The position numbers were made by a program, and so were the translations under genes. A stretch of DNA of 64,000 nt from Candidatus Magasanikiibacteriota bacterium (GTDB taxonomy: Bacteria > Patescibacteriota > Patescibacteriia > Magasanikbacterales > UBA922), in assembly GCA_052033375.1 (NCBI GenBank), contig JBPOJQ010000008.1:1185-65184 (forward strand), given 5' to 3'. Positions 21,866 through 64,000 of this stretch are shown here, piece by piece. The notes under the pieces are model-generated. The model was not told the DNA's origin, made no database searches, and saw only the letters and a list, made by a program, of their open reading frames with translations. The stretch's first letter is position 1, and each line of letters opens with the position of its first letter.

Positions 21866-23392
21866 ATGGAAAAAAATATTCAATTCATTCTTGATGAGCT
21901 CTACCAGATTGATCCAGAGTTGAAAAATCATCAAGTAGAAATCGCACAAATAGTTGATACTATGATGAAAAACAAGCCACACACGCAATTCGATGAGAAT
22001 TTTGCCCGTGAACTGAAAACAAAAGTACTTGAAAAGTTTTCTCACGGGATTACGACAGAAAAAAAGCCGTTCTCATTTTTTAGATCAAAATTTGTCTATA
22101 CACTCAGTGGTGCGCTCGCAACACTTGCGATTGCACTGCCGATTGTGTATGTGACGTCAGGAAACATCTCGAATCAATGGGTAAAAAATAGTTTTACAGG
22201 TGGAACACAGGTCGTACGAGCTGAGGCAAATGCATTTGGTCCATTATCACCAGTGACAGCGAATGTGAATACTGCTGAAAGTGCGACTGATGTAGCGGCT
22301 CCGATGACAGCTGGTATGGGGGGTGATGCAGCTAAGATCAGCGGCACGTCTCTCTTGTATAATCCAGAATATATTAATTATCATTTTGTATTTAATGGAG
22401 AATTGCCCGAAGTGGGTGATAGTATCGAGGTATTGAAACGTGAATCAGGAATTGATGCTGCGAAACAATATGCAGGAATACTACAAAAAATAAAATTAGG
22501 TATTTTTGATCTGGGAAAAGTACAACAGGCACGAGTACAAAACTTTTCTCTTGCTGAAGACCGAGAACAGGGTTATATAATAAATGTGGATATGATTGGA
22601 GGAACAGTATCGATTTCAGAAAATTACTCTGCATGGGCGTGGCGTTCAGCGCGACCATTCATCGAATGTAGTGCCGATTCTTGTGTTGATCCGAATAGAA
22701 TTACGATTGATGAAGTGCCTGAAGATGCCGAATTATTGAAAGTTGCTGATGAATTTTTGAAAGAATATGGGATAGACATGAGCTCGTATGGCACGGGGAA
22801 GGTAGATACTCGTTGGAGAATTGGATATGAACGTGCAGAAGATAAGGATGCATTCTATATCTCAAATATACAGACTATCATATACCAGCTGATGATTGAC
22901 GACATGCCTGTCTATGAAGAATATGGTGAGCCGATGGGTATCCGAGTGAATGTCAATGCGACTGAGATGAGAGTAACCAATGTCGATGGAATTATGACAA
23001 AGAAATTTAGCGCATCTTCCTATGTCGGAGAGACTAATGATGCACGCCTTCGTGCGCTGATTGAAAAGGGGAGAATGGTCGCATATGATCAGCCTACTAA
23101 GACAGTAGAAGCAGAGTTAGAAAATGCAAAAAAAGGATATATGCGCCGGTGGCAATACAATGAGAGTAACGGAATTTCAAGTGAAATATTTGTTCCTGCA
23201 ATTGTGGTCGAGGTAAAAGATTTTGAACGATTGCAGGGCGAGGGACTGTGGCAGAGTAATATCGTCATTCCGCTTGCAAGTGAAATGTTGACCGAGCTTG
23301 AAAAGCAAGCAGAAGAACCTATACATATCATGCCATTTGATGCGACACTGAAAGACGCGGTGAGTGAGCCTGCGGTAGAGCCACGAGGCTAA
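21866..23392 (+). CDS. Single-pass membrane protein with large extracytoplasmic domain, candidate anti-sigma factor
   Basis: Directly downstream of ECF sigma gene; cytoplasmic N-terminus, one TM (LSGALATLAIALPIVYV), ~400-aa outside domain. Confidence 0.4.
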   Translation: MEKNIQFILDELYQIDPELKNHQVEIAQIVDTMMKNKPHTQFDENFARELKTKVLEKFSHGITTEKKPFSFFRSKFVYTLSGALATLAIALPIVYVTSGNISNQWVKNSFTGGTQVVRAEANAFGPLSPVTANVNTAESATDVAAPMTAGMGGDAAKISGTSLLYNPEYINYHFVFNGELPEVGDSIEVLKRESGIDAAKQYAGILQKIKLGIFDLGKVQQARVQNFSLAEDREQGYIINVDMIGGTVSISENYSAWAWRSARPFIECSADSCVDPNRITIDEVPEDAELLKVADEFLKEYGIDMSSYGTGKVDTRWRIGYERAEDKDAFYISNIQTIIYQLMIDDMPVYEEYGEPMGIRVNVNATEMRVTNVDGIMTKKFSASSYVGETNDARLRALIEKGRMVAYDQPTKTVEAELENAKKGYMRRWQYNESNGISSEIFVPAIVVEVKDFERLQGEGLWQSNIVIPLASEMLTELEKQAEEPIHIMPFDATLKDAVSEPAVEPRG

Positions 23393-23395
23393 GAA

Positions 23396-23437
23396 TAAAA
23401 ACATCCCGGTTTAAGTCGGGATGTTTTGTTTTTTTTA
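23396..23437. terminator. Bidirectional rho-independent terminator
   Basis: AAAACATCCCG-GTTTAAGT-CGGGATGTTTT flanked by A- and T-runs; between convergent genes. Confidence 0.75.
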
Positions 23438-24079
23438 TTCGGTAATTACACATGTTCCATTATTGTAGGCTTCGGTTAGTGGGTCATTTAGTTGATCTTC
23501 ACCATCTAAGGTTACGTTGCTTGAGCCGCTACTGCTCCCTTTAAATGTTGAAGTCACATTTTCGTTCTCAATATCAACTGTACCTTCAGCTTCAAACCCT
23601 ATGCCCGCTTCAATAGTAATTTCTTCTGCAGATAGTAATTTTTTATAATATTCAGCAATCACAACTCGAGTATTTTGATCATAGTTACATACCGCATGTT
23701 CATTGTATTTACTATTAGTTTCTTCTATCGTTTTACATTTGCCATTCACCATACCGACTATTTCTTTTTGGAATTTATACTCGGGGTTTAATAAAAATGG
23801 GTGTAAACATGTATACGGTGTGCAACTTTTTAATTTATCAGGAAATAAGTCGCAGTTAGAAGCTATGTTAGATTTAGGAGATACTTGTAGAGGTATTTCA
23901 GTTTTTTTAGTAGTTTCGGTACTGGTGGATAATAATGTTGAGGTAACATGCAAAGTTGTAGTAGTATTTTGCTGAATTTCAACTGGTGCCTGTTTTTTCG
24001 GTTCTTCAGTTCTGGTATTCGTGTTGCATGATGCACCTAGTAACAAAAAACATGTGCTAATTAAAATTTTTTTGTACAT
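23435..24079 (-). CDS. Secreted Cys-rich protein (putative lipoprotein)
   Basis: Signal peptide with LLGASC lipobox-like site, Thr-rich linker, 8 Cys in mature part. Confidence 0.45.
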   Translation of the reverse strand: MYKKILISTCFLLLGASCNTNTRTEEPKKQAPVEIQQNTTTTLHVTSTLLSTSTETTKKTEIPLQVSPKSNIASNCDLFPDKLKSCTPYTCLHPFLLNPEYKFQKEIVGMVNGKCKTIEETNSKYNEHAVCNYDQNTRVVIAEYYKKLLSAEEITIEAGIGFEAEGTVDIENENVTSTFKGSSSGSSNVTLDGEDQLNDPLTEAYNNGTCVITE

Positions 24080-24163
24080 ATATATTATACAAGAATATTT
24101 AGTAATTTCATTTACAAGTTGATACTACTCTTCGATATATGACACTGTCAAGTTAAACACATT

Positions 24164-24436
24164 GTGCATTTTCAAGTTTTAGTTTATCCTAGGTGTTATA
24201 TGCACCCAAATTTTTGGAAATATTTTGCGATTATCAGCGTTTCAGCTTGTATCCTTGTTATTGTTACATGGCTACTCTGGCCTTCTGGTTCGACTGGGTC
24301 AGAAACCAAAAATGAATTACGAACCGAAGAAATGGTTGAAGAAATTTTAAAAGCAGAAGAACCCATACATATCATGCCATTTGATGCGACACTGAAAGAC
24401 GCGGTGAGTGAGCCTGCGGTAGAGCCACGAGGCTAA
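24164..24436 (+). pseudogene. Chimeric gene fragment: capA-like 5' end fused to duplicated 3' end of gene 21866-23392
   Basis: N-terminal 35 aa (MHPNFWKYFAIISVS...) paralogous to CapA-like start at 25088; C-terminal 27 aa identical to the end of 21866-23392, with the same terminator. Confidence 0.55.
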
Positions 24437-24470
24437 GAATAAAAACATCCCGGTTTAGTCGGGATGTTTT
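24352..24470 (+). repeat. ~120-bp direct repeat copy of 23308-23430 (gene 3' end plus terminator)
   Basis: Near-identical apart from one substitution and a 1-nt indel in the terminator loop. Confidence 0.8.
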
Positions 24471-24541
24471 GTTATGTGAAATGTAGGGGCCGTCATGCGC
24501 GATATGGAAGTATATGCACGCATGACGGGAATTCAGCGGAC

Positions 24542-25087: not shown

Positions 25088-26239
25088 ATGCATCCAAACT
25101 TTTGGAAATACTTCGCGATTTTAAGCGTTTCACTCACCGGCGTAGCGGTTATTATTGTTTGGTTGTTTTGGCCATCCAGCCCATCAGATTCTAGTAACAG
25201 CAGTCCACGTGTCAGTAAGACGACTATTGAAGAAAATAATGGCGATGTCGTGCCGATAGTCCCAGAAAAAGATAGATTGAAGATATTCGCAGCAGGGGAC
25301 ATCATGCTCGATCGCACCATGCTCCTCTTGGCACAAAAACATAACGATTTCGGATATTCATTTCGAATGATTTCCTCTACATTACGGCAAGCTGATCTTC
25401 GTGTAGTGAATCTCGAAGGACCTATAACCACAAATAAATCTATTTCAAATGGCGAAGGGGGTGCCCGATTTAGTTTTACGTTTTCACCAAAAGTCACCTC
25501 AACACTCAAAGAAAATTTTGACGTCGTGAGCCTTGCGAATAATCACACCACAAATTTCGGATTCGAAGGTCTAGAACAAACCAAAAAGTTTCTTGACGAA
25601 GCAGGAATAGAGTGGTTTGGTGATCCGAATAATCGAGCAGGGCAACAACTTTCGGTAATCGTGGAAAAAAATGGATTCAAGATTGGATTTGTGGGGCATC
25701 ATCAATTGATTGAAAGTGGATTTGAAAATGTGCTAGCAGAAGTGCAAAAAATTCGTCCCGAGGTAGATATCATTATTGCTTATCCGCATTGGGGAGTCGA
25801 GTATGTGACGACCACCCCCTCACTGCTCCAAGAAAAAGAAGCTCATGCATTGATAGATGCAGGAGTCGATATGGTCATTGGTGCACATCCGCATGTGATT
25901 CAGCCTGTGGAATTATATAAAGACCGGATAATTTTTTATAGCCTAGGAAATTTTGTGTTCGATCAATATTTTTCACTTGAAACCATGCAAGGATTGTTAC
26001 TTTCATTAGAATTAGAAAAAGATACTGAAAATATTGATACAAGAATTACTTTAATTCCTGTACATATCAGCAAAGAAAGTCAGCCCGCGGTGGCGGGAGC
26101 TGTTGAGAGGGAAGATATACTGTCATTAGTAGGGAGAGTGTCGATCGGGGATGAGGTATTCAGAGAATCGGTCAAAAATGGTGTCTTATCTGTGACTATA
26201 CCACATCAGAAAACAGAGACGATTATTCCTATGAAATAA
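25088..26239 (+). CDS. CapA/PGA_cap-family metallophosphoesterase (poly-gamma-glutamate capsule synthesis protein-like)
   Basis: N-terminal TM; motifs AAGDIMLDR, NLEGPIT, SLANNHTTNFG, AYPHWGVEY, GAHPHVIQ, GNFVFDQ. Confidence 0.75.
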   Translation: MHPNFWKYFAILSVSLTGVAVIIVWLFWPSSPSDSSNSSPRVSKTTIEENNGDVVPIVPEKDRLKIFAAGDIMLDRTMLLLAQKHNDFGYSFRMISSTLRQADLRVVNLEGPITTNKSISNGEGGARFSFTFSPKVTSTLKENFDVVSLANNHTTNFGFEGLEQTKKFLDEAGIEWFGDPNNRAGQQLSVIVEKNGFKIGFVGHHQLIESGFENVLAEVQKIRPEVDIIIAYPHWGVEYVTTTPSLLQEKEAHALIDAGVDMVIGAHPHVIQPVELYKDRIIFYSLGNFVFDQYFSLETMQGLLLSLELEKDTENIDTRITLIPVHISKESQPAVAGAVEREDILSLVGRVSIGDEVFRESVKNGVLSVTIPHQKTETIIPMK

Positions 26240-34814: not shown

Positions 34815-35396
34815 ATGAAAAAAGTATTAATCGGGGTGGGGGTACTGGTAGTATTATTTGGACTGTTTATCTGGTGGGGAACCACGCTCGAAGATACGCC
34901 ACAGTCGACAACTACTGAGCAAAAAGCACCGGAAGTAACTCAAAAAAGTATACAGAATTTTACGTCGGATAAAGGAAATTTTTCTATTTATTTCGAAGGA
35001 TCTCCAGAATACACACTCGAACCGCTCACATTGGAAAGTGGCGAATCTTTTCCAGCGCATCTGTATCAATATCAGGATGCTGATGGTAGCGTCTGGCAAG
35101 TATTTTTCACTGAATATCCAGAAAAAGCAGTATTGGCTTCAAATGATGTAGATTCATTGCTAAACACAATCAAAGGTACCGAAGGGTCGATTGGTGGAAA
35201 ATTGATATCGACAAATGTCACTTCGTATCAGGGATATACTGCAATTGATTACGAAATGTATGTCGAAGCAGACAAATATTATTTCAAAGGAAGAAATGTG
35301 CTCAATGGACGAAAACTCTATTCAGTGGCGTATATTCATGGAGAGGGAAAGACAGGAGATTATCAAAAATTCTTTGATTCATTGTTGATTAAATAA
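34815..35396 (+). CDS. Membrane-anchored secreted protein, tandem paralog 1
   Basis: N-terminal anchor MKKVLIGVGVLVVLFGLFIWWG; shares a DKGNFS..YF...PEYT...WQVFFTEYP...YYFKGRN.L.GRKLYSV.YI core with downstream paralog. Confidence 0.55.
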   Translation: MKKVLIGVGVLVVLFGLFIWWGTTLEDTPQSTTTEQKAPEVTQKSIQNFTSDKGNFSIYFEGSPEYTLEPLTLESGESFPAHLYQYQDADGSVWQVFFTEYPEKAVLASNDVDSLLNTIKGTEGSIGGKLISTNVTSYQGYTAIDYEMYVEADKYYFKGRNVLNGRKLYSVAYIHGEGKTGDYQKFFDSLLIK

Positions 35397-35433: not shown

Positions 35434-36009
35434 ATGAAAAAAGTATTAATCGGGGTGGGGGTAGTGCTCGTGTTATTTGTATTATTTATCTGGTGGGGGA
35501 GTACTATTGAGGATACGCCGGAATCGAACAATTCTGGGACGATGGATACAGCGCCCGTCACTACTCAGGACTTCACTTCGGATAAAGGAAATTTCTCAGT
35601 ATATTTCGGAGGAGCTCCTGAATACACCCCAGGTACACTCTCACTGAAGAATGGGGATTCATTTGCGACACATCTCTATCAGCACCGCGCAGAGGATGGT
35701 AGTGTCTGGCAAGTATTTTTTACTGAATATCCGAAGAGTGCTGATCTATCCAATGAGGAAAACTTTTTGTTGAATAGTATCAAAGGAACCGAAAGTTCAA
35801 TCAATGGAAAAATTGTATCGAGTAATAGTACAAAATATCAGGGATTGCCTGCCATTGACTATCTGATCTATCTCGAGAATGAAAAATATTATTTCAAGGG
35901 TAGAAATATTCTCGATGGACGAAAACTTTATTCAGTCGTATATATCTACGATGATGGAAAAGAAGTTTCTTCTGAAAAGTTTTTCAGCTCATTCAAGATA
36001 CTCAAGTAG
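35434..36009 (+). CDS. Membrane-anchored secreted protein, tandem paralog 2
   Basis: First 27 nt identical to paralog 1; about 55% identity overall by eye. Confidence 0.55.
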   Translation: MKKVLIGVGVVLVLFVLFIWWGSTIEDTPESNNSGTMDTAPVTTQDFTSDKGNFSVYFGGAPEYTPGTLSLKNGDSFATHLYQHRAEDGSVWQVFFTEYPKSADLSNEENFLLNSIKGTESSINGKIVSSNSTKYQGLPAIDYLIYLENEKYYFKGRNILDGRKLYSVVYIYDDGKEVSSEKFFSSFKILK

Positions 36010-49919: not shown

Positions 49920-50744
49920 ATGGACATAGTATCTACGACCACAATTAGTGCCTTTGAACTAATTAATTTCTCAAAAGATATTGCACAGCTTAATTTAGGT
50001 TATTTGGGTATTGCAGTTACAATCCTTGGAATACTAGGGGTAGTCTTTGTTTATTTTAATATTAAACCACTGAAAGATACTCTTAATAAGCAGGAAAGTA
50101 CTATTGAAAATCTAAAGAAAGAAGCTCAAGAGTTACTGGATAAATCAGATATAAAAACTCAAAGTACACTAGAAAGTTTTGAAAAAAAACAATTATTATC
50201 ATTATCTAACTTGTTTGAGCAACAAAAAGAGAATATTAGCCTGGAGGTAAGTAATAAAATTCAAACTTCGGAAAACGTTTTGCTAGGGAAAATAGACTCA
50301 ATATCGAATGAAAAAGATTTAAGTTTAAAAGAAATACTTTTATCAGAAATGACTAACAAAATTCTCTCTCTCGAAAAATCTCTAGCTCTTACAATAGAAG
50401 AATCCAATAAGACGTACAATAAAGAGTTCTTATTATTTAAGAACAAGGTTGATGCAGATATTTTAGAATTGAAAGCTTACAAATATGATAAGGAAGGTAA
50501 GATGGGTGGAATAATTTTTAGCATTCAAGCTATTGAGAATTGTATAAAAAATGAGCCTTATTTATTAGAATTTAAGTTAAAGGATCTGAAAGAAATTATT
50601 GGAAACTATACTATAGATCCCGAACTTTTTATTCGGCTAAAAGGAGTGCTTAACGCTGCTAAAGAAAAAAAAGATCAAAAGCTCGATACACTTATAGAGG
50701 AAATACAAGCTTTGATTACTGTTCAAAGTAAACCACAAATATAG
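49920..50744 (+). CDS. Membrane-anchored coiled-coil protein, hypothetical
   Basis: One N-terminal TM (LGYLGIAVTILGILGVVFVYF), K/E/L/I-rich heptad-like remainder; very AT-rich. Confidence 0.4.
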   Translation: MDIVSTTTISAFELINFSKDIAQLNLGYLGIAVTILGILGVVFVYFNIKPLKDTLNKQESTIENLKKEAQELLDKSDIKTQSTLESFEKKQLLSLSNLFEQQKENISLEVSNKIQTSENVLLGKIDSISNEKDLSLKEILLSEMTNKILSLEKSLALTIEESNKTYNKEFLLFKNKVDADILELKAYKYDKEGKMGGIIFSIQAIENCIKNEPYLLEFKLKDLKEIIGNYTIDPELFIRLKGVLNAAKEKKDQKLDTLIEEIQALITVQSKPQI

Positions 50745-53315: not shown

Positions 53316-55082
53316 ATGAAGAAAATACTCTCAGCGTATCTTTTGCTACTAGGCTCATTGGCAGGCACAATTGTCATTTCACGTTTTTCCCCCGCATTAT
53401 TTTCTCTTTTCGAACACAGTTCGGACGAACACTTGTTAGTGGCTTTTTTCAGTATATCAGTTTTGTGTATTTTGAGTTTTATTATTTACCATCTTTCAGT
53501 AAAAACAATTTTTCCGTCATTCGTGGTGGCAATTTTTTTTGGTATCGCAGCACAGCCATTACTCCAGGGAATTGTATCTGAAAAAAGTTTGCTCAATGTT
53601 GTTGTGGGTGCGGGTGCTACATTGATTTTATTTAGCGGTGGACTTGAGACACCATTTGAAAATTTTAAAAAATTGATTTGGAAAATTCTCTCACTTTCAT
53701 TCGTTGGACTTTTTTTCACCGCAGCAGCATTTTCTTTTGGGGTCGATATCATTGGTAGGGTCGTGGGTGTTGAAGTGCCGATTGTGGTGTCGGTGTTACT
53801 GGGCGCATTACTTGCATCGACCGATCCTGCGGCAATTATACCAATTCTCAAAAAATTAAGATTCAATAAACGGGCCACCAAAGATTTGATTATTTCAGAA
53901 AGCGCAGTGACTGATGTGACTGGCACACTTCTCACGTTGGTATTTTTGGGTGTATTGGCGCATGGTGCGTTATTACCGTCGATCAAAGATGCATATGTGG
54001 GACTATTTACTCGTGATGTAGGGCATGTGCTTTTCGAAGAAATACTCTTCGGTGTAATTTTTGGTGGGATTGGATATCTATTGTTGGATTTTCTTTCAAA
54101 ATTTACGAAAAATGGTGGTGAGGAGTCAGAAGCACATGCGGCGTATTTTTTGTTTGTACCGATTGCTATTTTTACACTCGCAGTGGCGTTTGGGGGAAGT
54201 GGATATCTCGCAGCGTTTGTTGCAGGGTTGTTGTTTGTAATGAGCAAACATCTTCACAATACTGAACGTTTTTTCAATCACACAATTGAAGGTTTTTTTA
54301 AGCCGACCATCTTTATCTTGCTTGGTGCACTGGTAGATCTACAAAGTCTGATTGAGTATGCGGGCATAGGTATTCTTGCATCGCTCTTATTTATGTTTGT
54401 GACACGTCCATTGTCAGTATTTATCGCACTTGGACCATTTTCATTTTTTGGAAAAGAAAGATTTACTCTTCGAGAGTTGTTATTTATTTCATCCGTACGA
54501 GAAACAGGTGCTATTCCCGCAGTGTTGTTGGTAACAGTGGTGAGCATGGGAATTCCGAATCTCGAGGGTCTGGTGCCGATTGGAATGTGGGTTATTCTCG
54601 CTACACTGATTATTGAACCGCCATTGACTCCATTTTTAGCAAAATACCTAAAGGTAGCTGTTCCTATTTCTGATAAAAATGCCCTGACTATTACCAAAGA
54701 GTCACCATTTGTGGTATTGGGATCACGCGGGTACTCATTTATGGAGCGTCTGCCAATGGTCACCGACTGGGCGGTCAAACATCATATATATAGTGTTGTA
54801 TTACTCCATTGTTTGGAGGATAAATATACACCAGAGTTAGCAAAAGATATTGGGGAGCAAGCGGGTGTGCTATTCAAACAGATCAACGAAAAGAGGTCTG
54901 CAGCTGGTGAACACGATATCGATTTCGAATATGTGAGTCGAAAAGGCTTCTTGCAGGATAATATTGATGAATTGTCTAGACAGCGTAGCAATGTGACTAC
55001 TATTTTTGTGGGCAGAAAAGTGCTAGATTTCCGTCTGGAACACATAAAAAAGCTCTCAGTACCTATATTTTTTGTCGATTAA
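53316..55082 (+). CDS. Monovalent cation:proton antiporter (CPA1, NhaP-type) with C-terminal cytoplasmic domain
   Basis: ~12 TM helices with CPA motifs (LLGALLASTDPAAIIPIL; ISESAVTDVTGTLL) plus ~130-aa soluble C-terminus. Confidence 0.65.
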   Translation: MKKILSAYLLLLGSLAGTIVISRFSPALFSLFEHSSDEHLLVAFFSISVLCILSFIIYHLSVKTIFPSFVVAIFFGIAAQPLLQGIVSEKSLLNVVVGAGATLILFSGGLETPFENFKKLIWKILSLSFVGLFFTAAAFSFGVDIIGRVVGVEVPIVVSVLLGALLASTDPAAIIPILKKLRFNKRATKDLIISESAVTDVTGTLLTLVFLGVLAHGALLPSIKDAYVGLFTRDVGHVLFEEILFGVIFGGIGYLLLDFLSKFTKNGGEESEAHAAYFLFVPIAIFTLAVAFGGSGYLAAFVAGLLFVMSKHLHNTERFFNHTIEGFFKPTIFILLGALVDLQSLIEYAGIGILASLLFMFVTRPLSVFIALGPFSFFGKERFTLRELLFISSVRETGAIPAVLLVTVVSMGIPNLEGLVPIGMWVILATLIIEPPLTPFLAKYLKVAVPISDKNALTITKESPFVVLGSRGYSFMERLPMVTDWAVKHHIYSVVLLHCLEDKYTPELAKDIGEQAGVLFKQINEKRSAAGEHDIDFEYVSRKGFLQDNIDELSRQRSNVTTIFVGRKVLDFRLEHIKKLSVPIFFVD

Positions 55083-55178
55083 GGGTCTCCAGGGTGAAAA
55101 AGAAGGGTATGGGTGGGGATAAATACAAAATTATATTGACAGATTGGGTAATTTCATCTACACTTGAGGGCGCTTTCT

Positions 55179-55457: not shown

Positions 55458-56249
55458 ATGGCTGAAATTCACATTCCAGGATTAGCACCAGAAGTATTGT
55501 TCCATATGGGACCGGTTCCGGTTACCAATACTATTGTGAATGTGTGGATTGCACTTATCATTTTTCTTGTCATGGGAATTGCGATCAAGCGAAAAATTTC
55601 CATGCGACCAGGGAAATTCCAAAATGGGTTTGAATATATTCTAGAGCTCTTACTTCCATACTTCGACCAAGTCACGGGAGATCGAAAAAAGACTATTCGC
55701 TTTTTGCCTATAGTCGGAACGATCTTCTTTTTTATTTTACTTTCAAACTGGCTTGGGCTGTTGCCTGGAACGGGGAGTATTAGCGTCGGACACAACATGT
55801 TACTTCGTCCCGCAAATACTGATTTGAATTTGACGGTGGTCATGGCGCTCGTGTCAGTCATTGCATCACATGTGTTTGCGTTTATGAGTATTGGAGTATT
55901 TACTCACTTGGGAAAGTTTGTGCAATTCGGAAATGTAATTCGAAGTATCAAAAAAGGGCCAATGGCAATATTCTCAGCACTGATCGAATTTGCGGTTGGT
56001 TTGCTTGAGATTGTGAGTGAAATGGCAAAAATTCTTTCACTCTCGCTTCGTTTATTTGGAAATATTTTTGCCGGAGAAGTGTTGATCTCGGTTATGAGTG
56101 CACTTGTTGCAGCTCTCGTCCCAACCCCCTTTATGTTACTTGAATTGTTGGTCGGATTAATCCAGGCGAGTGTGTTTGCAATGCTTACATTGGTGTATAT
56201 GACTGTTGCAAGTTCAGCTCCACACGGCGCTGATGAAGCACATCATTAG
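55458..56249 (+). CDS. atpB: F0F1 ATP synthase subunit a
   Basis: LSLSLRLFGNIFAGEVL with essential Arg; 5-6 TM helices. Confidence 0.9.
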   Translation: MAEIHIPGLAPEVLFHMGPVPVTNTIVNVWIALIIFLVMGIAIKRKISMRPGKFQNGFEYILELLLPYFDQVTGDRKKTIRFLPIVGTIFFFILLSNWLGLLPGTGSISVGHNMLLRPANTDLNLTVVMALVSVIASHVFAFMSIGVFTHLGKFVQFGNVIRSIKKGPMAIFSALIEFAVGLLEIVSEMAKILSLSLRLFGNIFAGEVLISVMSALVAALVPTPFMLLELLVGLIQASVFAMLTLVYMTVASSAPHGADEAHH

Positions 56250-56297: not shown

Positions 56298-56606
<309 letters not shown>

Positions 56607-56666: not shown

Positions 56667-57296
56667 ATGTACTTAGTATACAACGGGGAAGGACAAACGT
56701 ATGAAACAACTCAGGCAGATCTTGCTGAGGTTCAGGTTGCGGGAGTAAATACAGAAACGGAGACTACGGCTGAAGTTGGGCATGAGACGACCGCCTCAGA
56801 TGAGGGGTTGCTCGCTGGTCTCGGTATCAATGGCCCACTATTTTTATTCCAATTGCTCAATTTTGCATTAGTAGCGGTAATTGTATGGTTTTTGATTTTG
56901 AAACCATTGACCAAAAAAATGGAAGAGCGAAAAAATATTATTGATGAAAGTCTCGACCGTGCAAAAGAAGTTGAAACCAATTTGAAGATGAGCGAAGTGC
57001 GATTTCAAGAAAAATTGGAAGAAGCAAAAAAAGAAGCTAATGCAATTATTGCAGGGGCACAGGAAGAGGCTACTCGAGTACAGGAGACCATGAAGCAAAA
57101 AACAAAAGATGACGTGGAGGCACTCGTATTAGCTGCAAAGAAAAACATTGAAGTCGAAAAAACAGAAATGCAGGCAAGTCTCAGAAAAGAAACCGTAGAG
57201 ATTGTGGTTGCTGCTATGGAAAAAGTATTAGGTGAAAAAATGGATGACAAAAAAGACAAGAAGTTTGTAGAGGAAATTTTGAAAACAATCAAATAA
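56667..57296 (+). CDS. atpF: F0F1 ATP synthase subunit b (with ~55-aa acidic N-terminal extension if ATG 56667 is used)
   Basis: TM (LFLFQLLNFALVAVIVWFLILKPL) then long charged coiled-coil; an internal TTG/GTG near 56800 would give a canonical b. Confidence 0.75.
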   Translation: MYLVYNGEGQTYETTQADLAEVQVAGVNTETETTAEVGHETTASDEGLLAGLGINGPLFLFQLLNFALVAVIVWFLILKPLTKKMEERKNIIDESLDRAKEVETNLKMSEVRFQEKLEEAKKEANAIIAGAQEEATRVQETMKQKTKDDVEALVLAAKKNIEVEKTEMQASLRKETVEIVVAAMEKVLGEKMDDKKDKKFVEEILKTIK

Positions 57297-57298
57297 AT

Positions 57299-57682
57299 AT
57301 GGCAAAATTGCTTACGAGACAATACGGAAAAATTTTATTTGAAAGCACCAAAGGGCTGAAAGGAGCTGAGCTTGATGGTGTGATTAAAAATTTCCTTTTA
57401 TTTCTACAAAGTAAGCAAATGCTTGGGAAAGCGGATCGCATCATGAAAGAGTATGAAACATATGCGAAACAAGCTGAAGGTATACAGATGATCGAGATAA
57501 TGAGTGCGAGAGAATTATCAGAGAGTTCAATAAAACAAATTAGTAAACATTTTGGAGAAAAAGTAGAAGCATCGGTGACGATTGACCCGACACTCCTCGG
57601 AGGAATCATGGTGAAGACTGAGAATGAGATTTTCGATGGAAGTATCAAAGGACAATTGGAGAAACTTAAAACTCAACTATAA
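57299..57682 (+). CDS. atpH: F0F1 ATP synthase subunit delta (short form)
   Basis: C-terminal OSCP/delta domain (IDPTLLGGIMVKTENEIFDGSIKGQLEKL); 127 aa, N-terminal domain shortened. Confidence 0.7.
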   Translation: MAKLLTRQYGKILFESTKGLKGAELDGVIKNFLLFLQSKQMLGKADRIMKEYETYAKQAEGIQMIEIMSARELSESSIKQISKHFGEKVEASVTIDPTLLGGIMVKTENEIFDGSIKGQLEKLKTQL

Positions 57683-57690
57683 CTTAGCAC

Positions 57691-57755
57691 GTCATTCCCG
57701 CGAAAGCGGGAATCCAGAGATACAAATACTGGGTTCCTGTTTCCACAGGAATGAC
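57691..57755. repeat. Nested palindromic element, copy 2, between atpH and atpA
   Basis: Outer GTCATTCC/GGAATGAC enclosing ATTCCCGC-GAAA-GCGGGAAT and CCTGT-TTCC-ACAGG; shares outer octamer and GGAATCC with copy 1. Confidence 0.6.
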
Positions 57756-57780
57756 ACAAAGAGATTAATTAATAAAAAAT

Positions 57781-59271
57781 ATGGCATACACCGATCAAGT
57801 GATTGCATCACTTAAGAAAAATATCGAATCGTTCAAAAAAGAAGTCCAGGTCGAAGAAGTTGGTACTGTTATTGAAATTGGAGATGGAATCGCGCGCATG
57901 AGTGGGCTTGAGAAATGTCAGGCTCAGGAAATGTTGGAATTCCCTGGAAATACGTTTGGTATTGCATTGAACTTGCAGGAAGAGACTGTCGGTGCAGTAA
58001 TTTTGGGTTCATACCAGCATATCAAAGAAGGTGACACCGTAAAAAGAACAGGACGTATCATGTCTGTTCCGGTTGCTGACGCACTCATTGGTCGCGTAGT
58101 AAATGCGATTGGTGAACCTATTGATGGAAAGGGCGCGATTAATACCAAAACATTCTATCCAGTAGAGCGAATTGCGCCAGGTGTGATGACCCGCGAACCA
58201 GTCAGTCGCCCGATGCAGACTGGTATCAAAGCGATTGATGCACTCATCCCGGTAGGACGTGGACAGCGTGAACTCATCATCGGTGATCGCCAAACGGGAA
58301 AAACCGCAATTGCGATTGATACGATTCTCAATCAGAAAGGTCAGGATATTATTTGTATCTATGTTGCTGTTGGACAAAAAGAATCAAAAGTTGCCCGAAT
58401 TGTATCAAAATTGAAAGAAGCGGGGGCAATGGATTATACAATTGTAGTCTCTGCTGGTGCATCTGAACCTGCTCCGATGTCATATCTTGCTCCATATGCA
58501 GGGGTTGCGATTGGAGAATATTTCATGGACAAAGGAAAAGATGTGTTGATTATCTATGATGATTTGACCAAACAAGCATGGGCATATCGTGAAATGTCAC
58601 TCTTGCTCCGACGCCCACCAGGACGTGAAGCATATCCTGGAGACGTATTTTATCTTCACTCACGTCTGCTTGAACGCGCCTGCAGTCTGAATAAAGAAAA
58701 TGGCGGTGGATCGATTACTGCATTGCCAATTATCGAAACTCAGGCAGGGGACATCTCAGCATACGTTCCAACCAATGTAATTTCGATTACTGATGGACAG
58801 ATCTTCCTTGAGACTGATCTCTTCTTCCGTGGTATCCGCCCAGCTCTGAACGTAGGTTTGTCAGTATCTCGTGTAGGAGGATCTGCTCAAATCAAGCCAA
58901 TGAAGAAAGTTGCCGGAAGTTTGAAGCTTGGACTTGCACAGTTCCGAGAACTTGAAGCATTTGCACAATTCGCAAGTGATCTTGATCCAGAAACCAAAAA
59001 ATCCATCGAACGCGGTCGCCGAATGACTGAGCTCTTGAAGCAACCTCAGTATGTACCAGAAGCAGTCGAAGATCAGGTTGTGTCAATTTACGCCATGTCA
59101 CAGGGGTTATTCGATACTGTAGAAGTTGCACAGGTGAAAGATACAGAAAAGAAATTCCTCGAATTCATGCGAGCGTCAAAATCAGCGCTTCTTGGAAAAA
59201 TCAAGAAAGGTGAGTGGAATGAGGATGTAGAAAAAGAATTGAAAGAAGCTATTAAGGAATTTGCAAAATAA
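57781..59271 (+). CDS. atpA: F0F1 ATP synthase subunit alpha
   Basis: Walker A GDRQTGKT, Walker [10 protein letters not shown], full alpha-subunit collinearity. Confidence 0.95.
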
Positions 59272-59276
59272 TATTG

Positions 59277-59300
59277 TATGGCAGTCAGTGGAAAAGCAAT
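59277..59300 (+). repeat. 24-bp perfect direct repeat (copy 1; copy 2 at 60367-60390) flanking the inserted gene
   Basis: TATGGCAGTCAGTGGAAAAGCAAT at both positions; includes ATG and first 7-8 codons of atpG. Confidence 0.85.
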
Positions 59301-60363
59301 GGAACAAAGTATGAATACAGAAAAAAATAAAGATATAGAGTTTTTTTCTGTATCGCGTACTCGGCTTGCTATTTTGTCCATACTCACGTTTCGTTTGTAT
59401 GAGGCATATTGGTTTTATAGAAATTGGAAGGCAATCAAAGATGTTGAACAGTCAGAAATTTCACCAATAGGAAGGGCTATCTTTGGGATATTTTACTGCA
59501 GTAATCTAGCTAAGAAAGTTCTAGAATCAGCACAGTTACATGGATATGCAAAGTCGTATATACCCAAAAATGTAGCAATAATTTACTTCCTTCTTTTCAT
59601 TTTGAGTAGCCTCCTTTTCAAAGGTATTTTTATGGCTTTGATTCCTACATTTATACCTCTATTCTCGATACAGAGGGCAATTGAATATAATAATTCGAAA
59701 ATTGTACCAAGTAATAATCAGAAAAAAAAGTTTGCCAAAGGAGAATTAATTATAATTATTGTGGGGGTAGCCCTATTTTGTTTAGGAATTTTTGAGACTT
59801 ATACGCTACTAAAAGAAAGTTACCGAACTTATTTCCCACAAACAGTAGAGCAAAAGAATGTAGAATGGAAAGAGTTTGTTTCACCAGAAGGAGACTTCAA
59901 AATGAATTTTCCTGTTGAACCGAATCATGAGTTAGAAAATATACAGGTACCAGGAACTAATTTTACAATTAAAAGAGACTATTATAGCAATGCGATATCC
60001 AATGACGAAAAATTATTAACATTTTATGAGGTCAACATTCTTACTTTGCCTAAACAATTTGCTGATGAATATAATTCCCAAGGCCCAGAAGCAGAGTTCA
60101 AATTACTACAAGTTTTTGTTGATAAACTACTTATTTCAGATGAAAAAGAACCAAAGGCAGAATTAATTTTCTCTACCTCAACTACATTTGGGAAAGTTCA
60201 GGCAGTAGATTTTCTTATTCAGCGTAAAGATGAAACCCTTTTAAAAGGGAGAAGCTTTAGGGTAGAATCAAAGGTGTATAGTTTAATGGTAGATTATGAG
60301 AAGGATAATTATAATGAGACTGAGTACAGTAAATTTATCAATTCATTTACCTTGCTAAAGTAA
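59278..60363 (+). CDS. AT-rich membrane protein gene inserted at the atpG start; first 8 codons identical to atpG
   Basis: MAVSGKAM... begins with the same 24 nt as atpG; ~4 TM helices then ~190-aa soluble C-terminus; markedly lower GC than atp genes. Confidence 0.5.
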   Translation: MAVSGKAMEQSMNTEKNKDIEFFSVSRTRLAILSILTFRLYEAYWFYRNWKAIKDVEQSEISPIGRAIFGIFYCSNLAKKVLESAQLHGYAKSYIPKNVAIIYFLLFILSSLLFKGIFMALIPTFIPLFSIQRAIEYNNSKIVPSNNQKKKFAKGELIIIIVGVALFCLGIFETYTLLKESYRTYFPQTVEQKNVEWKEFVSPEGDFKMNFPVEPNHELENIQVPGTNFTIKRDYYSNAISNDEKLLTFYEVNILTLPKQFADEYNSQGPEAEFKLLQVFVDKLLISDEKEPKAELIFSTSTTFGKVQAVDFLIQRKDETLLKGRSFRVESKVYSLMVDYEKDNYNETEYSKFINSFTLLK

Positions 60364-60367
60364 GAAT

Positions 60368-61297
60368 ATGGCAGTCAGTGGAAAAGCAATAAAACAACGC
60401 ATCAAGTCGGTAAAAAATACCAAAAAAATCACCAAAGCAATGGAGATGGTTTCGGCTGCAAAAATGCGAAAAGCAATCCAAGCGGTGACTGCGACCCGTA
60501 CGTATGCATTACTTGCGCGTGAACTCATGGAAAAATTGAGTATGAACGGTGAGGTAAAAAGTCCGCTGACTGAAGTACGCCCAGTAAAAAAAGTATTAGT
60601 AATATTGTTTAGTTCAAATAGAGGGCTTGCGGGAAGTTTCAATTCAAATATTTTCAAAAAAACTAGAAATCTTCTCACACGCGCAGACGTGTTTGGCAAT
60701 GTGTCAGTCAATGATCTGATGTATGACATTATCGGGGTTGGGAAAAAGAGCGCGTATTTTGCAAAACGATTCAATTATCCGCTCGTTGCGGCATATGATG
60801 CAATTCGTGATAACCCGACCGTAGAAGACATTCTTCCAATTACGAATACCGCGCTTGAGAAATTCAAATCAGGTGAATATGATGCAGTGCTTGTGGCATA
60901 CACTGATTTCAAATCGAGTATCGTGCAAGTTCCAAAAATACGAAAATTGCTCCCCATTACCAAAGAAGATATTGAATCAATGCTCGATGATGTAGGAGAA
61001 GAAAAGACTGAGAAGGAAGTGAGTATAGAAGATACGACGGAATATGAATTTGAACCAGATACGGCAATGATTATGGAAACAGTTCTACCCCGACTATTCG
61101 AAGTCCAGCTCTACCAGACACTTCTGGAATCGAGAGCGAGTGAGCATAGTGCCCGAATGGTCGCGATGAAGAATGCGACGGAAGCAGCGGGGGACATGAT
61201 CGATGCATTAACGGTAGAATTCAATAAAGCACGGCAAGCTGGTATTACGAAAGAAATTGCAGAAATCGCCGGAGGCGCAGCTGCACTGGAAAATTAA
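60368..61297 (+). CDS. atpG: F0F1 ATP synthase subunit gamma
   Basis: MAVSGKAIKQRIKSVKNTKKITKAMEMVSAAKMRKA start and conserved C-terminal helix. Confidence 0.9.
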   Translation: MAVSGKAIKQRIKSVKNTKKITKAMEMVSAAKMRKAIQAVTATRTYALLARELMEKLSMNGEVKSPLTEVRPVKKVLVILFSSNRGLAGSFNSNIFKKTRNLLTRADVFGNVSVNDLMYDIIGVGKKSAYFAKRFNYPLVAAYDAIRDNPTVEDILPITNTALEKFKSGEYDAVLVAYTDFKSSIVQVPKIRKLLPITKEDIESMLDDVGEEKTEKEVSIEDTTEYEFEPDTAMIMETVLPRLFEVQLYQTLLESRASEHSARMVAMKNATEAAGDMIDALTVEFNKARQAGITKEIAEIAGGAAALEN

Positions 61298-61329: not shown

Positions 61330-62703
<1,374 letters not shown>

Positions 62704-62784: not shown

Positions 62785-63204
62785 ATGATAAATTTCAAAA
62801 TAGTTAAACCCGAGGGCATTGTCTATTCAGACGAGGCTGTAGAAAAAGTAACTATTCCCACAAAGGAAGGATATATTACGGTTTTACCACACCATGTTCC
62901 TCTCATTACCATACTTGATGCAGGGGAATTGATTGTATTCAAAAAAGATCATGAAGTACCGATTGCAGTCTCGGGCGGAGTAGCTGAAGTGCGGAAGGAT
63001 AATACAGTCTATATCTTAGCGGATAGCGCAGAGCGAGCAGAAGAAATCGATCTTGAACGAGCTGAAGCTGGGCGTAAACGAGCAGAAGAATTACTTGCAG
63101 CAGAAGAGAAATCTGCAGACGTCGACTTCGCACGTGTACAAGCTTCGCTTGAAAAAGAAATGAATCGCTTGCGTATTGCGAAGAAGTACAAGCCGACGAG
63201 ATAA
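62785..63204 (+). CDS. atpC: F0F1 ATP synthase subunit epsilon
   Basis: N-terminal beta-sandwich and C-terminal helical hairpin; operon position. Confidence 0.85.
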   Translation: MINFKIVKPEGIVYSDEAVEKVTIPTKEGYITVLPHHVPLITILDAGELIVFKKDHEVPIAVSGGVAEVRKDNTVYILADSAERAEEIDLERAEAGRKRAEELLAAEEKSADVDFARVQASLEKEMNRLRIAKKYKPTR

Positions 63205-63217
63205 AATTATTTTACAA

Positions 63218-63246
63218 AATAAAACTCCCCAATTTGGGGAGTTTTA
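63218..63246 (+). terminator. Rho-independent terminator of the atp operon
   Basis: AAAACTCCCC-AATT-GGGGAGTTTT. Confidence 0.8.
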
Positions 63247-63321
63247 TAATTGACGAGATGTATTTTTTGTGTTGTAATGTCGTCGCCTGAATTTCCAGGT
63301 GATCAGAAGGAGTCTTCGCAC

Positions 63322-63774
63322 ATGTCATCCACTACGCCTAGAAGACCGTGTATCTGCGGACCGTCGGCAAAATTGCCGATCGACCTGCGGGACACGGTAA
63401 ATGAGTTCTACTCGAAGCTCGCGGACATCTGCGAGCAGGTTCTCGGAGCTCGTGCACACATGAAGCACGAGGGTAGACGTACGAACGTGGACGAGAGGGA
63501 ACGCATACTGAAGTATACGTCCCTTCTCGTGGTCGTCGCGATCGCAGAGGACTATGATACCGGGATCTTGGTCGAAATGGCCGACAGATACCTGGTGCCG
63601 GTCGTCATCCTCTGCGAACAGAGCGCGCTGGAGACAAGCCGGATCTCCGAGCGCATCTCGCCTCTGCTGCTGGGAAATCCCGCAGTCAGAGGAGTGATCG
63701 CGTACAAAAGCTTCGACGAAGCTCTCAAGCTCTTCACGGACTGGCTCAAGACGAATCGTTCGGAGATCAGTTAA
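63322..63774 (+). CDS. Hypothetical protein in high-GC islet (F)
   Basis: AAGGAG SD 8 nt before ATG 63322 (MSSTTPRRPCICGP...); GC-rich; GCGAATG-CACTCT-CATTCGC hairpin and AGCAGC..GCTGTTTTT element downstream. Confidence 0.35.
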   Translation: MSSTTPRRPCICGPSAKLPIDLRDTVNEFYSKLADICEQVLGARAHMKHEGRRTNVDERERILKYTSLLVVVAIAEDYDTGILVEMADRYLVPVVILCEQSALETSRISERISPLLLGNPAVRGVIAYKSFDEALKLFTDWLKTNRSEIS

Positions 63775-64000
63775 GAGAGAGCTGGGGGTCATGGAAATCA
63801 GGGGTGTCGCGAATGCACTCTCATTCGCACGCTCCAAAAGCAGCTTTATATAAGGCTGTTTTTGTTTTCATGGTATACTTATATGCATTATGCAACCATC
63901 CGAAGTTACCAATAAACAAGTATTACAATTATTTTGGAAATATTTACGATCGAATAAGGCCGTATTTTTTACGTCAACTGTTTCTGCGCTAGTGTGGAAT

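Follow-up and report, generated by a model that had tools for sequence, protein, structure and literature searches.

A foreign membrane-protein gene between atpA and atpG of a Candidatus Magasanikiibacteriota bacterium, flanked by a duplicated atpG start

The DNA considered here, called the window throughout, is a 64,000-nucleotide (nt) stretch from a Candidatus Magasanikiibacteriota bacterium (assembly GCA_052033375.1, contig JBPOJQ010000008.1, positions 1,185 to 65,184 of the forward strand). It contains a standard F-type ATPase operon in which an open reading frame (ORF) of 361 amino acids (aa) stands between atpA and atpG, the genes for the alpha and gamma subunits. The ORF is flanked by two exact copies of a 24-nt sequence, TATGGCAGTCAGTGGAAAAGCAAT, taken from the start of atpG, and related genomes lack the gene. 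It is likely that a promoter-less foreign gene of about 1.07 kilobases (kb) was inserted at the atpG start by illegitimate or short-homology-assisted recombination, and that it is a hitchhiker in the operon rather than a part of the synthase. The features on which the argument turns are listed below.

57781 to 59271, plus strand: atpA, F1 alpha subunit, 496 aa (Pfam ATP-synt_ab, E 3e-85).
59277 to 59300, plus strand: left repeat copy, the original atpG start region, read as T, then seven codons from ATG to GCA, then AT.
59278 to 60363, plus strand: chimeric ORF of 361 aa, with seven atpG-derived codons (MAVSGKA) in frame with a foreign gene from Met8 (ATG at 59299).
59301 to 59329, plus strand: imperfect continuation of the repeat, identical to atpG 60391-60419 at 20 of 29 positions and encoding residues 8-17 of the inserted protein.
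59301 to 60366, plus strand: inserted DNA proper, 1,066 nt, with a guanine-plus-cytosine content (GC) of 0.322; its boundaries can be placed anywhere inside the 24-nt repeat.
59335 to 59832, plus strand: DUF4234-related multi-pass membrane domain, residues ~20-185.
59860 to 60360, plus strand: C-terminal soluble domain, residues ~195-361, with a predicted PsbP/DcrB/Mog1-like alpha-beta fold.
60367 to 60390, plus strand: right repeat copy, holding the working atpG start codon (60368).
60368 to 61297, plus strand: atpG, F1 gamma subunit, 309 aa, intact (Pfam ATP-synt, E 4e-91, full profile).

The perfect repeat and the ORF opening with MAVSGKA had both been reported in a first-pass annotation of this DNA, and both are exactly as described there. 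The 24-mer is unique to its two sites, as no third copy was found within the window with up to three mismatches allowed (shuffled sequences predict 0 matches). The same annotation had stated that the first eight codons of atpG are duplicated. The repeat does lie at the atpG start, but it takes in one base 5' of the ATG, codons 1-7 in full and two of the three bases of codon 8, which is ATG (Met) in the first copy and ATA (Ile) in the second. At the downstream end, the TAA of the inserted ORF is followed after 3 nt by the right repeat copy and after 4 nt by the ATG of atpG, whose product begins MAVSGKAIKQ and is 96% identical to its relative P0002.

The direction of the event can be read from relatives. 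A graded series of these was collected by a protein search with the gamma subunit, and their contigs were compared at the atpA-atpG junction. The seven related lineages are given below with the identity of their gamma subunit and the length of the atpA-atpG spacer.

L081 (NCBI GCA_964394405.1), L082 and L083: gamma 96%, spacer 6 nt.
L084: gamma 89%, spacer 2 nt.
L085: gamma 83%, spacer 82 nt.
L087: gamma 81%, spacer 6 nt.
L093/L094: gamma 78%, spacer 100 nt.
L095/L096: gamma 71%, spacer 4 nt.
L097: gamma 64%, spacer 24 nt.

In all seven, atpG directly follows atpA, and the insert DNA has zero blastn matches in the relatives, where atpA, atpG and atpD are 77-91% identical. In the junction alignment, the left side of the window (the 3' end of atpA, its TAA, the spacer and the first repeat copy) is collinear with L081-L083 and L087, and the left copy runs on from atpA exactly as their empty sites do; the right copy has insert sequence 5' of it. 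The 6 nt between the atpA stop and the ATG from which the inserted ORF now starts are matched by an identical spacing in relatives that leads directly into atpG, and an empty-site form of this genome would read atpA joined straight to ...GCAATAAAACAACG. The earlier proposals that the gene was inserted between atpA and atpG, that it took over the former atpG start region and that an intact atpG start was regenerated are borne out by these comparisons. The same annotation had named an ancient arrangement, with the gene and its repeat in all relatives, as the finding that would speak against an insertion, and the seven lineages lack the insert. By sequence comparison, the insertion appears to be confined to this lineage and to have followed a divergence of about 9% at the nucleotide level from the nearest sampled relative. 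Both repeat copies have AGT and GCA where L081-L084 and L087 have AGC and GCG. Since these variants are specific to the lineage and common to both copies, the duplication would be young, or would have been homogenised, within this lineage.

The inserted DNA amounts to approximately one ORF, beginning at or 2 nt from the ATG of the incoming gene (the cargo) and ending 3 nt past its TAA. Its GC of 0.322, with 0.27 at third codon positions (GC3), lies far below that of atpA (0.44), atpG (0.42), atpD (0.44) and the window (0.417), as had been noted earlier; GC3 of the atp genes is approximately 0.35. No transposase or other recombinase was found among the ORFs or in Pfam and NCBIfam searches of the insert and its adjoining genes, the only ORF of the insert being the 361-aa membrane protein, and the ends of the insert do not match each other as inverted repeats. 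The earlier judgement that this is not an insertion sequence (IS) agrees with both results. An integron origin was also looked for, and neither a 3' palindrome of attC type at the insert nor an integrase among the ORFs of 52-64 kb was found. Rfam gave nothing relevant in 55-64 kb, and the 361-aa protein had zero matches to the PADLOC, PHROGs and NCBIfam profiles. Promoter-like and terminator-like sites show no excess in the insert, which holds no convincing terminator. Because the insert consists of the ORF without an excess of promoter-like sites, the atp promoter would drive transcription of the cargo, and its translation would begin at the former atpG start.

Similarity between the two copies does not stop at the 24-mer. 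A repeat search returned a pair of 53 nt at 83% identity, made up of the 24 perfect positions and an in-register continuation with 20 matches in 29. When the 29-nt atpG segment was slid along both strands of the window (approximately 128,000 positions), no other position reached 20 matches, which makes chance an unlikely source of the continuation. The suggestion that the insertion was assisted by homology gains plausibility from this extension. Residues 8-17, which the continuation encodes, match the closest homologue of the inserted protein, P0122 (pattern xExS/T...EKN), about as well as they match the gamma subunit (I/M-x-Q...KN). As they align about as well with the one as with the other, the continuation is read as patchy similarity that existed beforehand and not as decay, and it may have anchored one end of the recombination. 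Simple decay of a 53-nt duplication was considered and set aside, given that the first 24 nt are perfect and carry the marks of the lineage whereas the 29 nt that follow show 31% divergence and can also be aligned with the cargo family.

A perfect 13-base-pair (bp) A/U-rich hairpin (ATACAGAAAAAAA / TTTTTTTCTGTAT, 13-nt loop) is present at 59315-59353, at the 5' end of the inserted ORF, where it overlaps the imperfect continuation; its RNA fold z-score is -2.4. This 13-14-bp hairpin was examined as a possible recombination site and rejected, the simplest cause being the conserved EKN...FFS peptide, in which Lys and Asn codons are complementary to Phe codons. The gene of a homologue shows the same tendency, and the hairpin is probably a by-product of these codons.

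The inserted protein belongs to a large family, contrary to the earlier statement that it has no recognisable homology. A word-index protein search with the 361-aa sequence returned only itself and, when repeated with an 11-sequence alignment, eight proteins; an exhaustive search with HMMER yielded 2,634 proteins at E <=1e-3. Among the best 150 of these 2,634 matches, on which statements about coverage rest, most span only residues ~15-175, and the full-length matches are P0122 (44% identity, query residues 8-361), followed by P0123-P0128, P0133, P0139 and P0159. The multiple alignment shows every invariant family residue kept in the inserted protein. No homologue alignment starts before query residue 4, and that of the best match starts at residue 8; family homology from this residue indicates that MAVSGKA was derived from atpG and that the native protein would start at about Met8 (ATG 59299).

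The earlier description of a multi-pass membrane protein with a soluble domain holds, the latter measuring ~170-190 aa. Pfam DUF4234 (PF14018) matches residues 31-59 of the inserted protein at 17.4 bits (E 0.0048), below its gathering score of 25.3; nine of 11 full-length family members match it (best E 7.5e-6), some of them with N-terminal zinc ribbons. A tblastn match on a plasmid is annotated as a DUF4234 protein, and one weak match to phage DNA (25% identity) covers the membrane domain. AlphaFold2 with the 11-sequence alignment gave a model with a mean predicted local distance difference test score (pLDDT) of 81, in which residues 1-16 are disordered, 27-185 are helical and 195-361 form an alpha-beta domain; the single-sequence model (pLDDT 46) was uninformative. 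When the predicted C-terminal domain was used as the query in a Foldseek search against the PDB, the best match was cyanobacterial PsbP (2xb3; E 1.5e-5, probability 1.0, template modelling score normalised to the target 0.59). In total 14 PsbP entries were found at E <4e-4, with weaker matches to DcrB (6e8a, E 2e-3) and EagT6. The model suggests an envelope protein composed of a DUF4234-type membrane anchor and a PsbP/DcrB-like domain, which probably lies outside the cytoplasm and faces outward.

The genomic surroundings of the homologues point in the same direction as the composition of the insert. P0122 lies on contigs of GC 0.29-0.31, where its neighbours are zinc-ribbon membrane proteins and a trypsin-like protease, and P0125 adjoins transfer RNA (tRNA) synthetase genes; neither has atp genes nearby. 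The foreign composition and these contexts together suggest a donor of low GC and no role in the ATP synthase. The window also holds distant host paralogues of the C-terminal domain, in tandem genes at 34815-35396 (193 aa) and 35434-36009 (191 aa), whose products each have one membrane anchor, at the N-terminus; the relation was detected by tblastn (E 2e-4) and by shared ...AIDY...YFKGR...KLYSV...KFF.S..ILK motifs. With two host genes containing it, the domain would be nothing unusual among the envelope proteins of these organisms.

Duplicated host sequence also borders a second insertion in the window, at 23307-24473. A direct repeat of 107 nt at 99% identity (23307-23413 and 24351-24457) copies the last ~29 codons, at the 3' end, of a 508-aa gene (21866-23392) and, together with a duplicated terminator hairpin, makes a duplication of ~125 nt. 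Between the repeats are a minus-strand ORF for a 214-aa lipoprotein-like protein (23435-24079, GC 0.34) and a chimeric 90-aa ORF (24164-24436), in which ~95 nt from the ATG at 24201 are ~80% identical to the start of a 383-aa gene at 25088. The occurrence of duplications of 24 bp and ~125 nt in one genome argues for a recombination or repair route and against an enzyme of fixed geometry.

Under the preferred reading, insertion of a foreign gene by illegitimate or short-homology-assisted recombination, a low-GC donor would have supplied the promoter-less gene of ~1.07 kb, and the joining step would have duplicated 24 bp of the target. The upstream copy would keep the old translation-start context of atpG while its seven codons became fused in frame to the incoming gene, and the downstream copy would restore an intact atpG 4 nt past the stop of the insert, presumably translated by coupling. 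Candidate routes are anchoring of one end on the 20/29 similarity, capture at a staggered break, and a replicative template switch. Selection would then remove outcomes that are polar on atpGDC, and an insertion would persist only if it were compact, in frame, free of terminators and compatible with continued expression of atpG, atpD and atpC. The apparent precision of the insertion is thus probably a matter of survivorship, and a dedicated transposase or integrase is a less likely cause. Several points weigh against this account. Searches turned up no intermediate, donor sequence or second copy, and the genome is represented in collections by a single contig; exact-sequence look-ups with the 361-aa protein, atpG and atpA yielded no independent assembly of its junctions. 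Most illegitimate events leave a less tidy product than a bare ORF that stops 3 nt short of the repeat, a neatness for which survivorship is a plausible explanation. Alternatively, the 20/29 continuation could have diverged within a longer duplication of atpG, or it could be an attachment-site arm.

An attachment-site arm would fit a mobile cassette without an integrase of its own, which we regard as unlikely. A circular form carrying an atpG-like leader (the 24-nt core plus the imperfect arm) would have entered at the start of atpG through recombination catalysed in trans, either site-specific or of the Campbell type with short homology, the target being regenerated as it is by tRNA-targeting islands, and the circular junction would read ...CTAAAGTAAGAA-[24-mer]-GGAACAAAG. 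The perfect core with its in-register 20/29 arm does resemble attL/attR, the insert contains a single ORF and nothing to spare, another insertion in the window is flanked by duplicated host sequence, and genomes of the wider clade have unrelated small genes at atp junctions. However, no recombinase is found in or beside the insert, and the 24-mer was found nowhere else in the window, in metagenome contigs or in viral contigs. No homologue exceeds 44%, the two whose contexts were examined lie outside atp operons, and the retrieved homologue sequences do not begin with an atpG-like leader. Other occupied atpA-atpG junctions are without significant flank duplication, and the two duplications in the window differ in length (24 versus ~125 nt). 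Extended to a general class of recombinase-less, ORF-only cassettes that mimic the first codons of a highly expressed gene (here as a 53-nt atpG-like leader), integrate in Campbell fashion, capture the host start and regenerate the gene, the idea becomes quite improbable; if true, it would provide a general route for loading foreign envelope genes into essential operons of small-genome uncultured bacteria. Another reading makes the protein a subunit of the F-type ATP synthase with an accessory or regulatory role, specific to the lineage and recruited for co-expression and co-assembly; an accessory subunit had been offered by the first-pass annotation. The appeal of this reading is that a membrane-protein gene lies inside the operon and uses the former atpG start, that PsbP-like domains are generally known as protein-binding modules, and that distant relatives hold other small ORFs in the same slot. 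Those ORFs are mutually unrelated, though (a PQ-loop protein, a GIY-YIG nuclease and proteins of unknown function), and the gene is absent from seven related lineages whose atp operons are otherwise collinear. Neither of the two examined homologue contexts (P0122 and P0125) is linked to atp genes, the closest being among zinc-ribbon membrane proteins; the base composition is foreign, and free-standing paralogues of the C-terminal domain are found at 34.8-36.0 kb, far from the atp operon. An accessory role is therefore unsupported and very unlikely.

Two further explanations concern the integrity and the age of the arrangement. DNA of a low-GC organism might have been spliced in during assembly through a short shared k-mer, 24 nt being k-1 for k=25. 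The record consists of one contig from a single-sample assembly, the junctions are known from that assembly alone, and the GC of the insert agrees with that of another organism, which has the closest homologue. An artefact is nonetheless highly improbable, as both junctions need the host-specific 24-mer, with the lineage's own variants, joined to the insert, and a foreign genome would need this atpG sequence at both sides of the gene. Moreover, the fusion is in frame, the stop of the insert lies 4 nt before the atpG ATG, similarity runs on past the repeat, and the ORF is intact with all invariant family residues. There is likewise very little probability that the arrangement is old, with codons 1-17 of atpG (53 nt) duplicated long ago, the upstream copy since eroded in its distal part, and the gene lost from the relatives by way of the repeats. 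The 53-nt, 83% repeat fits such a history, and a perfect empty site is what a deletion between the 24-nt repeats would produce. It is unparsimonious, however, in requiring seven independent losses, and the composition shows no drift towards the host. A perfect 24 nt with lineage-specific synonymous variants beside 29 nt that differ by 31%, and residues 8-17 that also align with the cargo family, likewise speak against it.

The occupied slot has parallels in distant relatives (atpA 62-74% identical), in which mutually unrelated small ORFs lie between atpA and atpG. These and one insertion at the neighbouring junction are as follows.

L001:5686-6000, L002:5570-6000 and L003:5677-6000: atpA-atpG spacer ORFs of 95, 137 and 104 aa, respectively, of unknown function.
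L009:5694-6000: atpA-atpG spacer, PQ-loop/SemiSWEET-like protein.
L076:5099-5994: atpA-atpG spacer, GIY-YIG nuclease.
L047:5742-5990: atpA-atpG spacer, small unrelated ORF.
L097:3956-4342: between atpG and atpD, gene of the 23S_rRNA_IVP family.

At the occupied junctions of these distant relatives, no significant duplication of the atpG start or the atpA end was found, the marginal case being a 15-nt match in L002 that 4 of 500 shuffles reach. The atp-operon junctions of this group seem to tolerate hitchhikers and to be recurrent landing places, and they reveal no common mechanism.

Several known systems resemble parts of this arrangement. Horizontally acquired or ORFan genes reportedly insert into pre-existing operons, where they are called operon hitchhikers. 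The present case is alike in that a single foreign, promoter-less gene lies between conserved genes of an old operon, served by the host promoter, and collinear relatives lack it; it differs in its legible junctions, which comprise a 24-bp target duplication, a seven-codon in-frame fusion and an atpG start 4 nt after the stop of the insert. Homology-facilitated or short-patch illegitimate recombination is said to integrate foreign DNA in bacteria, with one short or imperfect homology (here 20/29) and an illegitimate join, and without enzymes of mobile elements. In the textbook cases of the homology-facilitated process the anchors measure at least 150 bp and recipient DNA is usually deleted, whereas here recipient sequence was duplicated, the putative anchor is ~30-50 nt, and the mechanism is one that we infer. 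Phages and genomic islands that target gene ends or tRNA genes share the flanking direct repeats, the regenerated target and the perfect core followed by imperfect similarity. Unlike them, the insert has no integrase, consists of a single ORF of 1.07 kb and targets the 5' end of a protein gene, and no second copy or relatives of such an element were found. Identical core repeats that regenerate the target, as at att sites, are present but are not diagnostic by themselves, and a recombinase is missing. ISs and transposons also leave a direct target duplication around the inserted DNA, usually of 2-14 bp; here it is 24 bp, with neither a transposase nor terminal inverted repeats, and the second duplication in the window is ~125 nt. 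As for the protein, it resembles DUF4234 (PF14018) members in a motif region of the YxxYWxYKNW type and in the helices of its N-terminal half. Such relatives often have an N-terminal zinc ribbon and swapped C-terminal domains, while the inserted protein falls below the gathering threshold and has its native N-terminus replaced by seven gamma residues. Its residues ~195-361 are alike to PsbP, DcrB (DUF1795) and Mog1-like domains in predicted fold, a fold-level likeness taken from a predicted model, at 9-17% identity and with no photosystem context. Literature on DUF4234 and on illegitimate recombination with duplication was searched, and nothing usable was found.

The rest of the operon is conventional. 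An atpI-like gene starts at 55164, atpB at 55458, atpE at 56376, atpF at 56667 and atpH at 57299, followed by atpA (57781-59271), the 361-aa ORF (59278-60363), atpG (60368-61297), atpD (61336-62703) and atpC (62785-63204). The atpH-atpA spacer (57683-57780) is 98 nt long and includes a palindrome (GTCATTCCCGCGAAAGCGGGAATC..., which the window has only once), while the corresponding spacer of L081 (96%) has 13 nt; the palindrome may be a small insertion resembling a miniature inverted-repeat transposable element or a repetitive extragenic palindrome. A similar sequence of the type 'cattcccgcgaa.gcgggaatcc' can be deduced for the atpA-atpG spacer of L013, from ORF translations only. A Na+/H+ exchanger gene lies 5' of the atpI-led operon in the window (53316-55082) and in L087, and an extra atpB-atpE-atpF (Fo) module lies directly 5' of it in L081 (272-1886) and L085 (188-1859). 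On the 3' side of atpC, GC climbs to 0.51-0.57 (63250-63900) over a 174-aa ORF (63250-63774). Only ~100-150 nt of 63205-64000 match the post-atpC regions of relatives, which indicates that the flank of the operon also varies by lineage. Elsewhere in the window, a 274-aa ORF at 49920-50744 (GC 0.29) has a tRNA-synthetase-like gene on one side and a small membrane-protein gene on the other; it has one N-terminal hydrophobic segment, a long Glu/Lys/Leu-rich region and no Pfam match, and may be another foreign insert.

The process at work is a known one, horizontal gene insertion into an operon, of which this is a clean example with an unusual and instructive junction. The insert brings to light neither a new ATP-synthase component nor a new class of mobile element. 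To our knowledge, the recombination pathways of small-genome, Patescibacteria-like bacteria are largely unknown, and we know of no function for the DUF4234 family, to which the combination of a DUF4234-type anchor with a PsbP-like domain adds an architecture. The locus provides a natural snapshot of an essential, ancient operon gaining a gene, with the junctions intact and the empty site kept in sister lineages, and can serve as a worked example for studies of operons that expand by horizontal transfer and of the way in which non-polar insertions persist.

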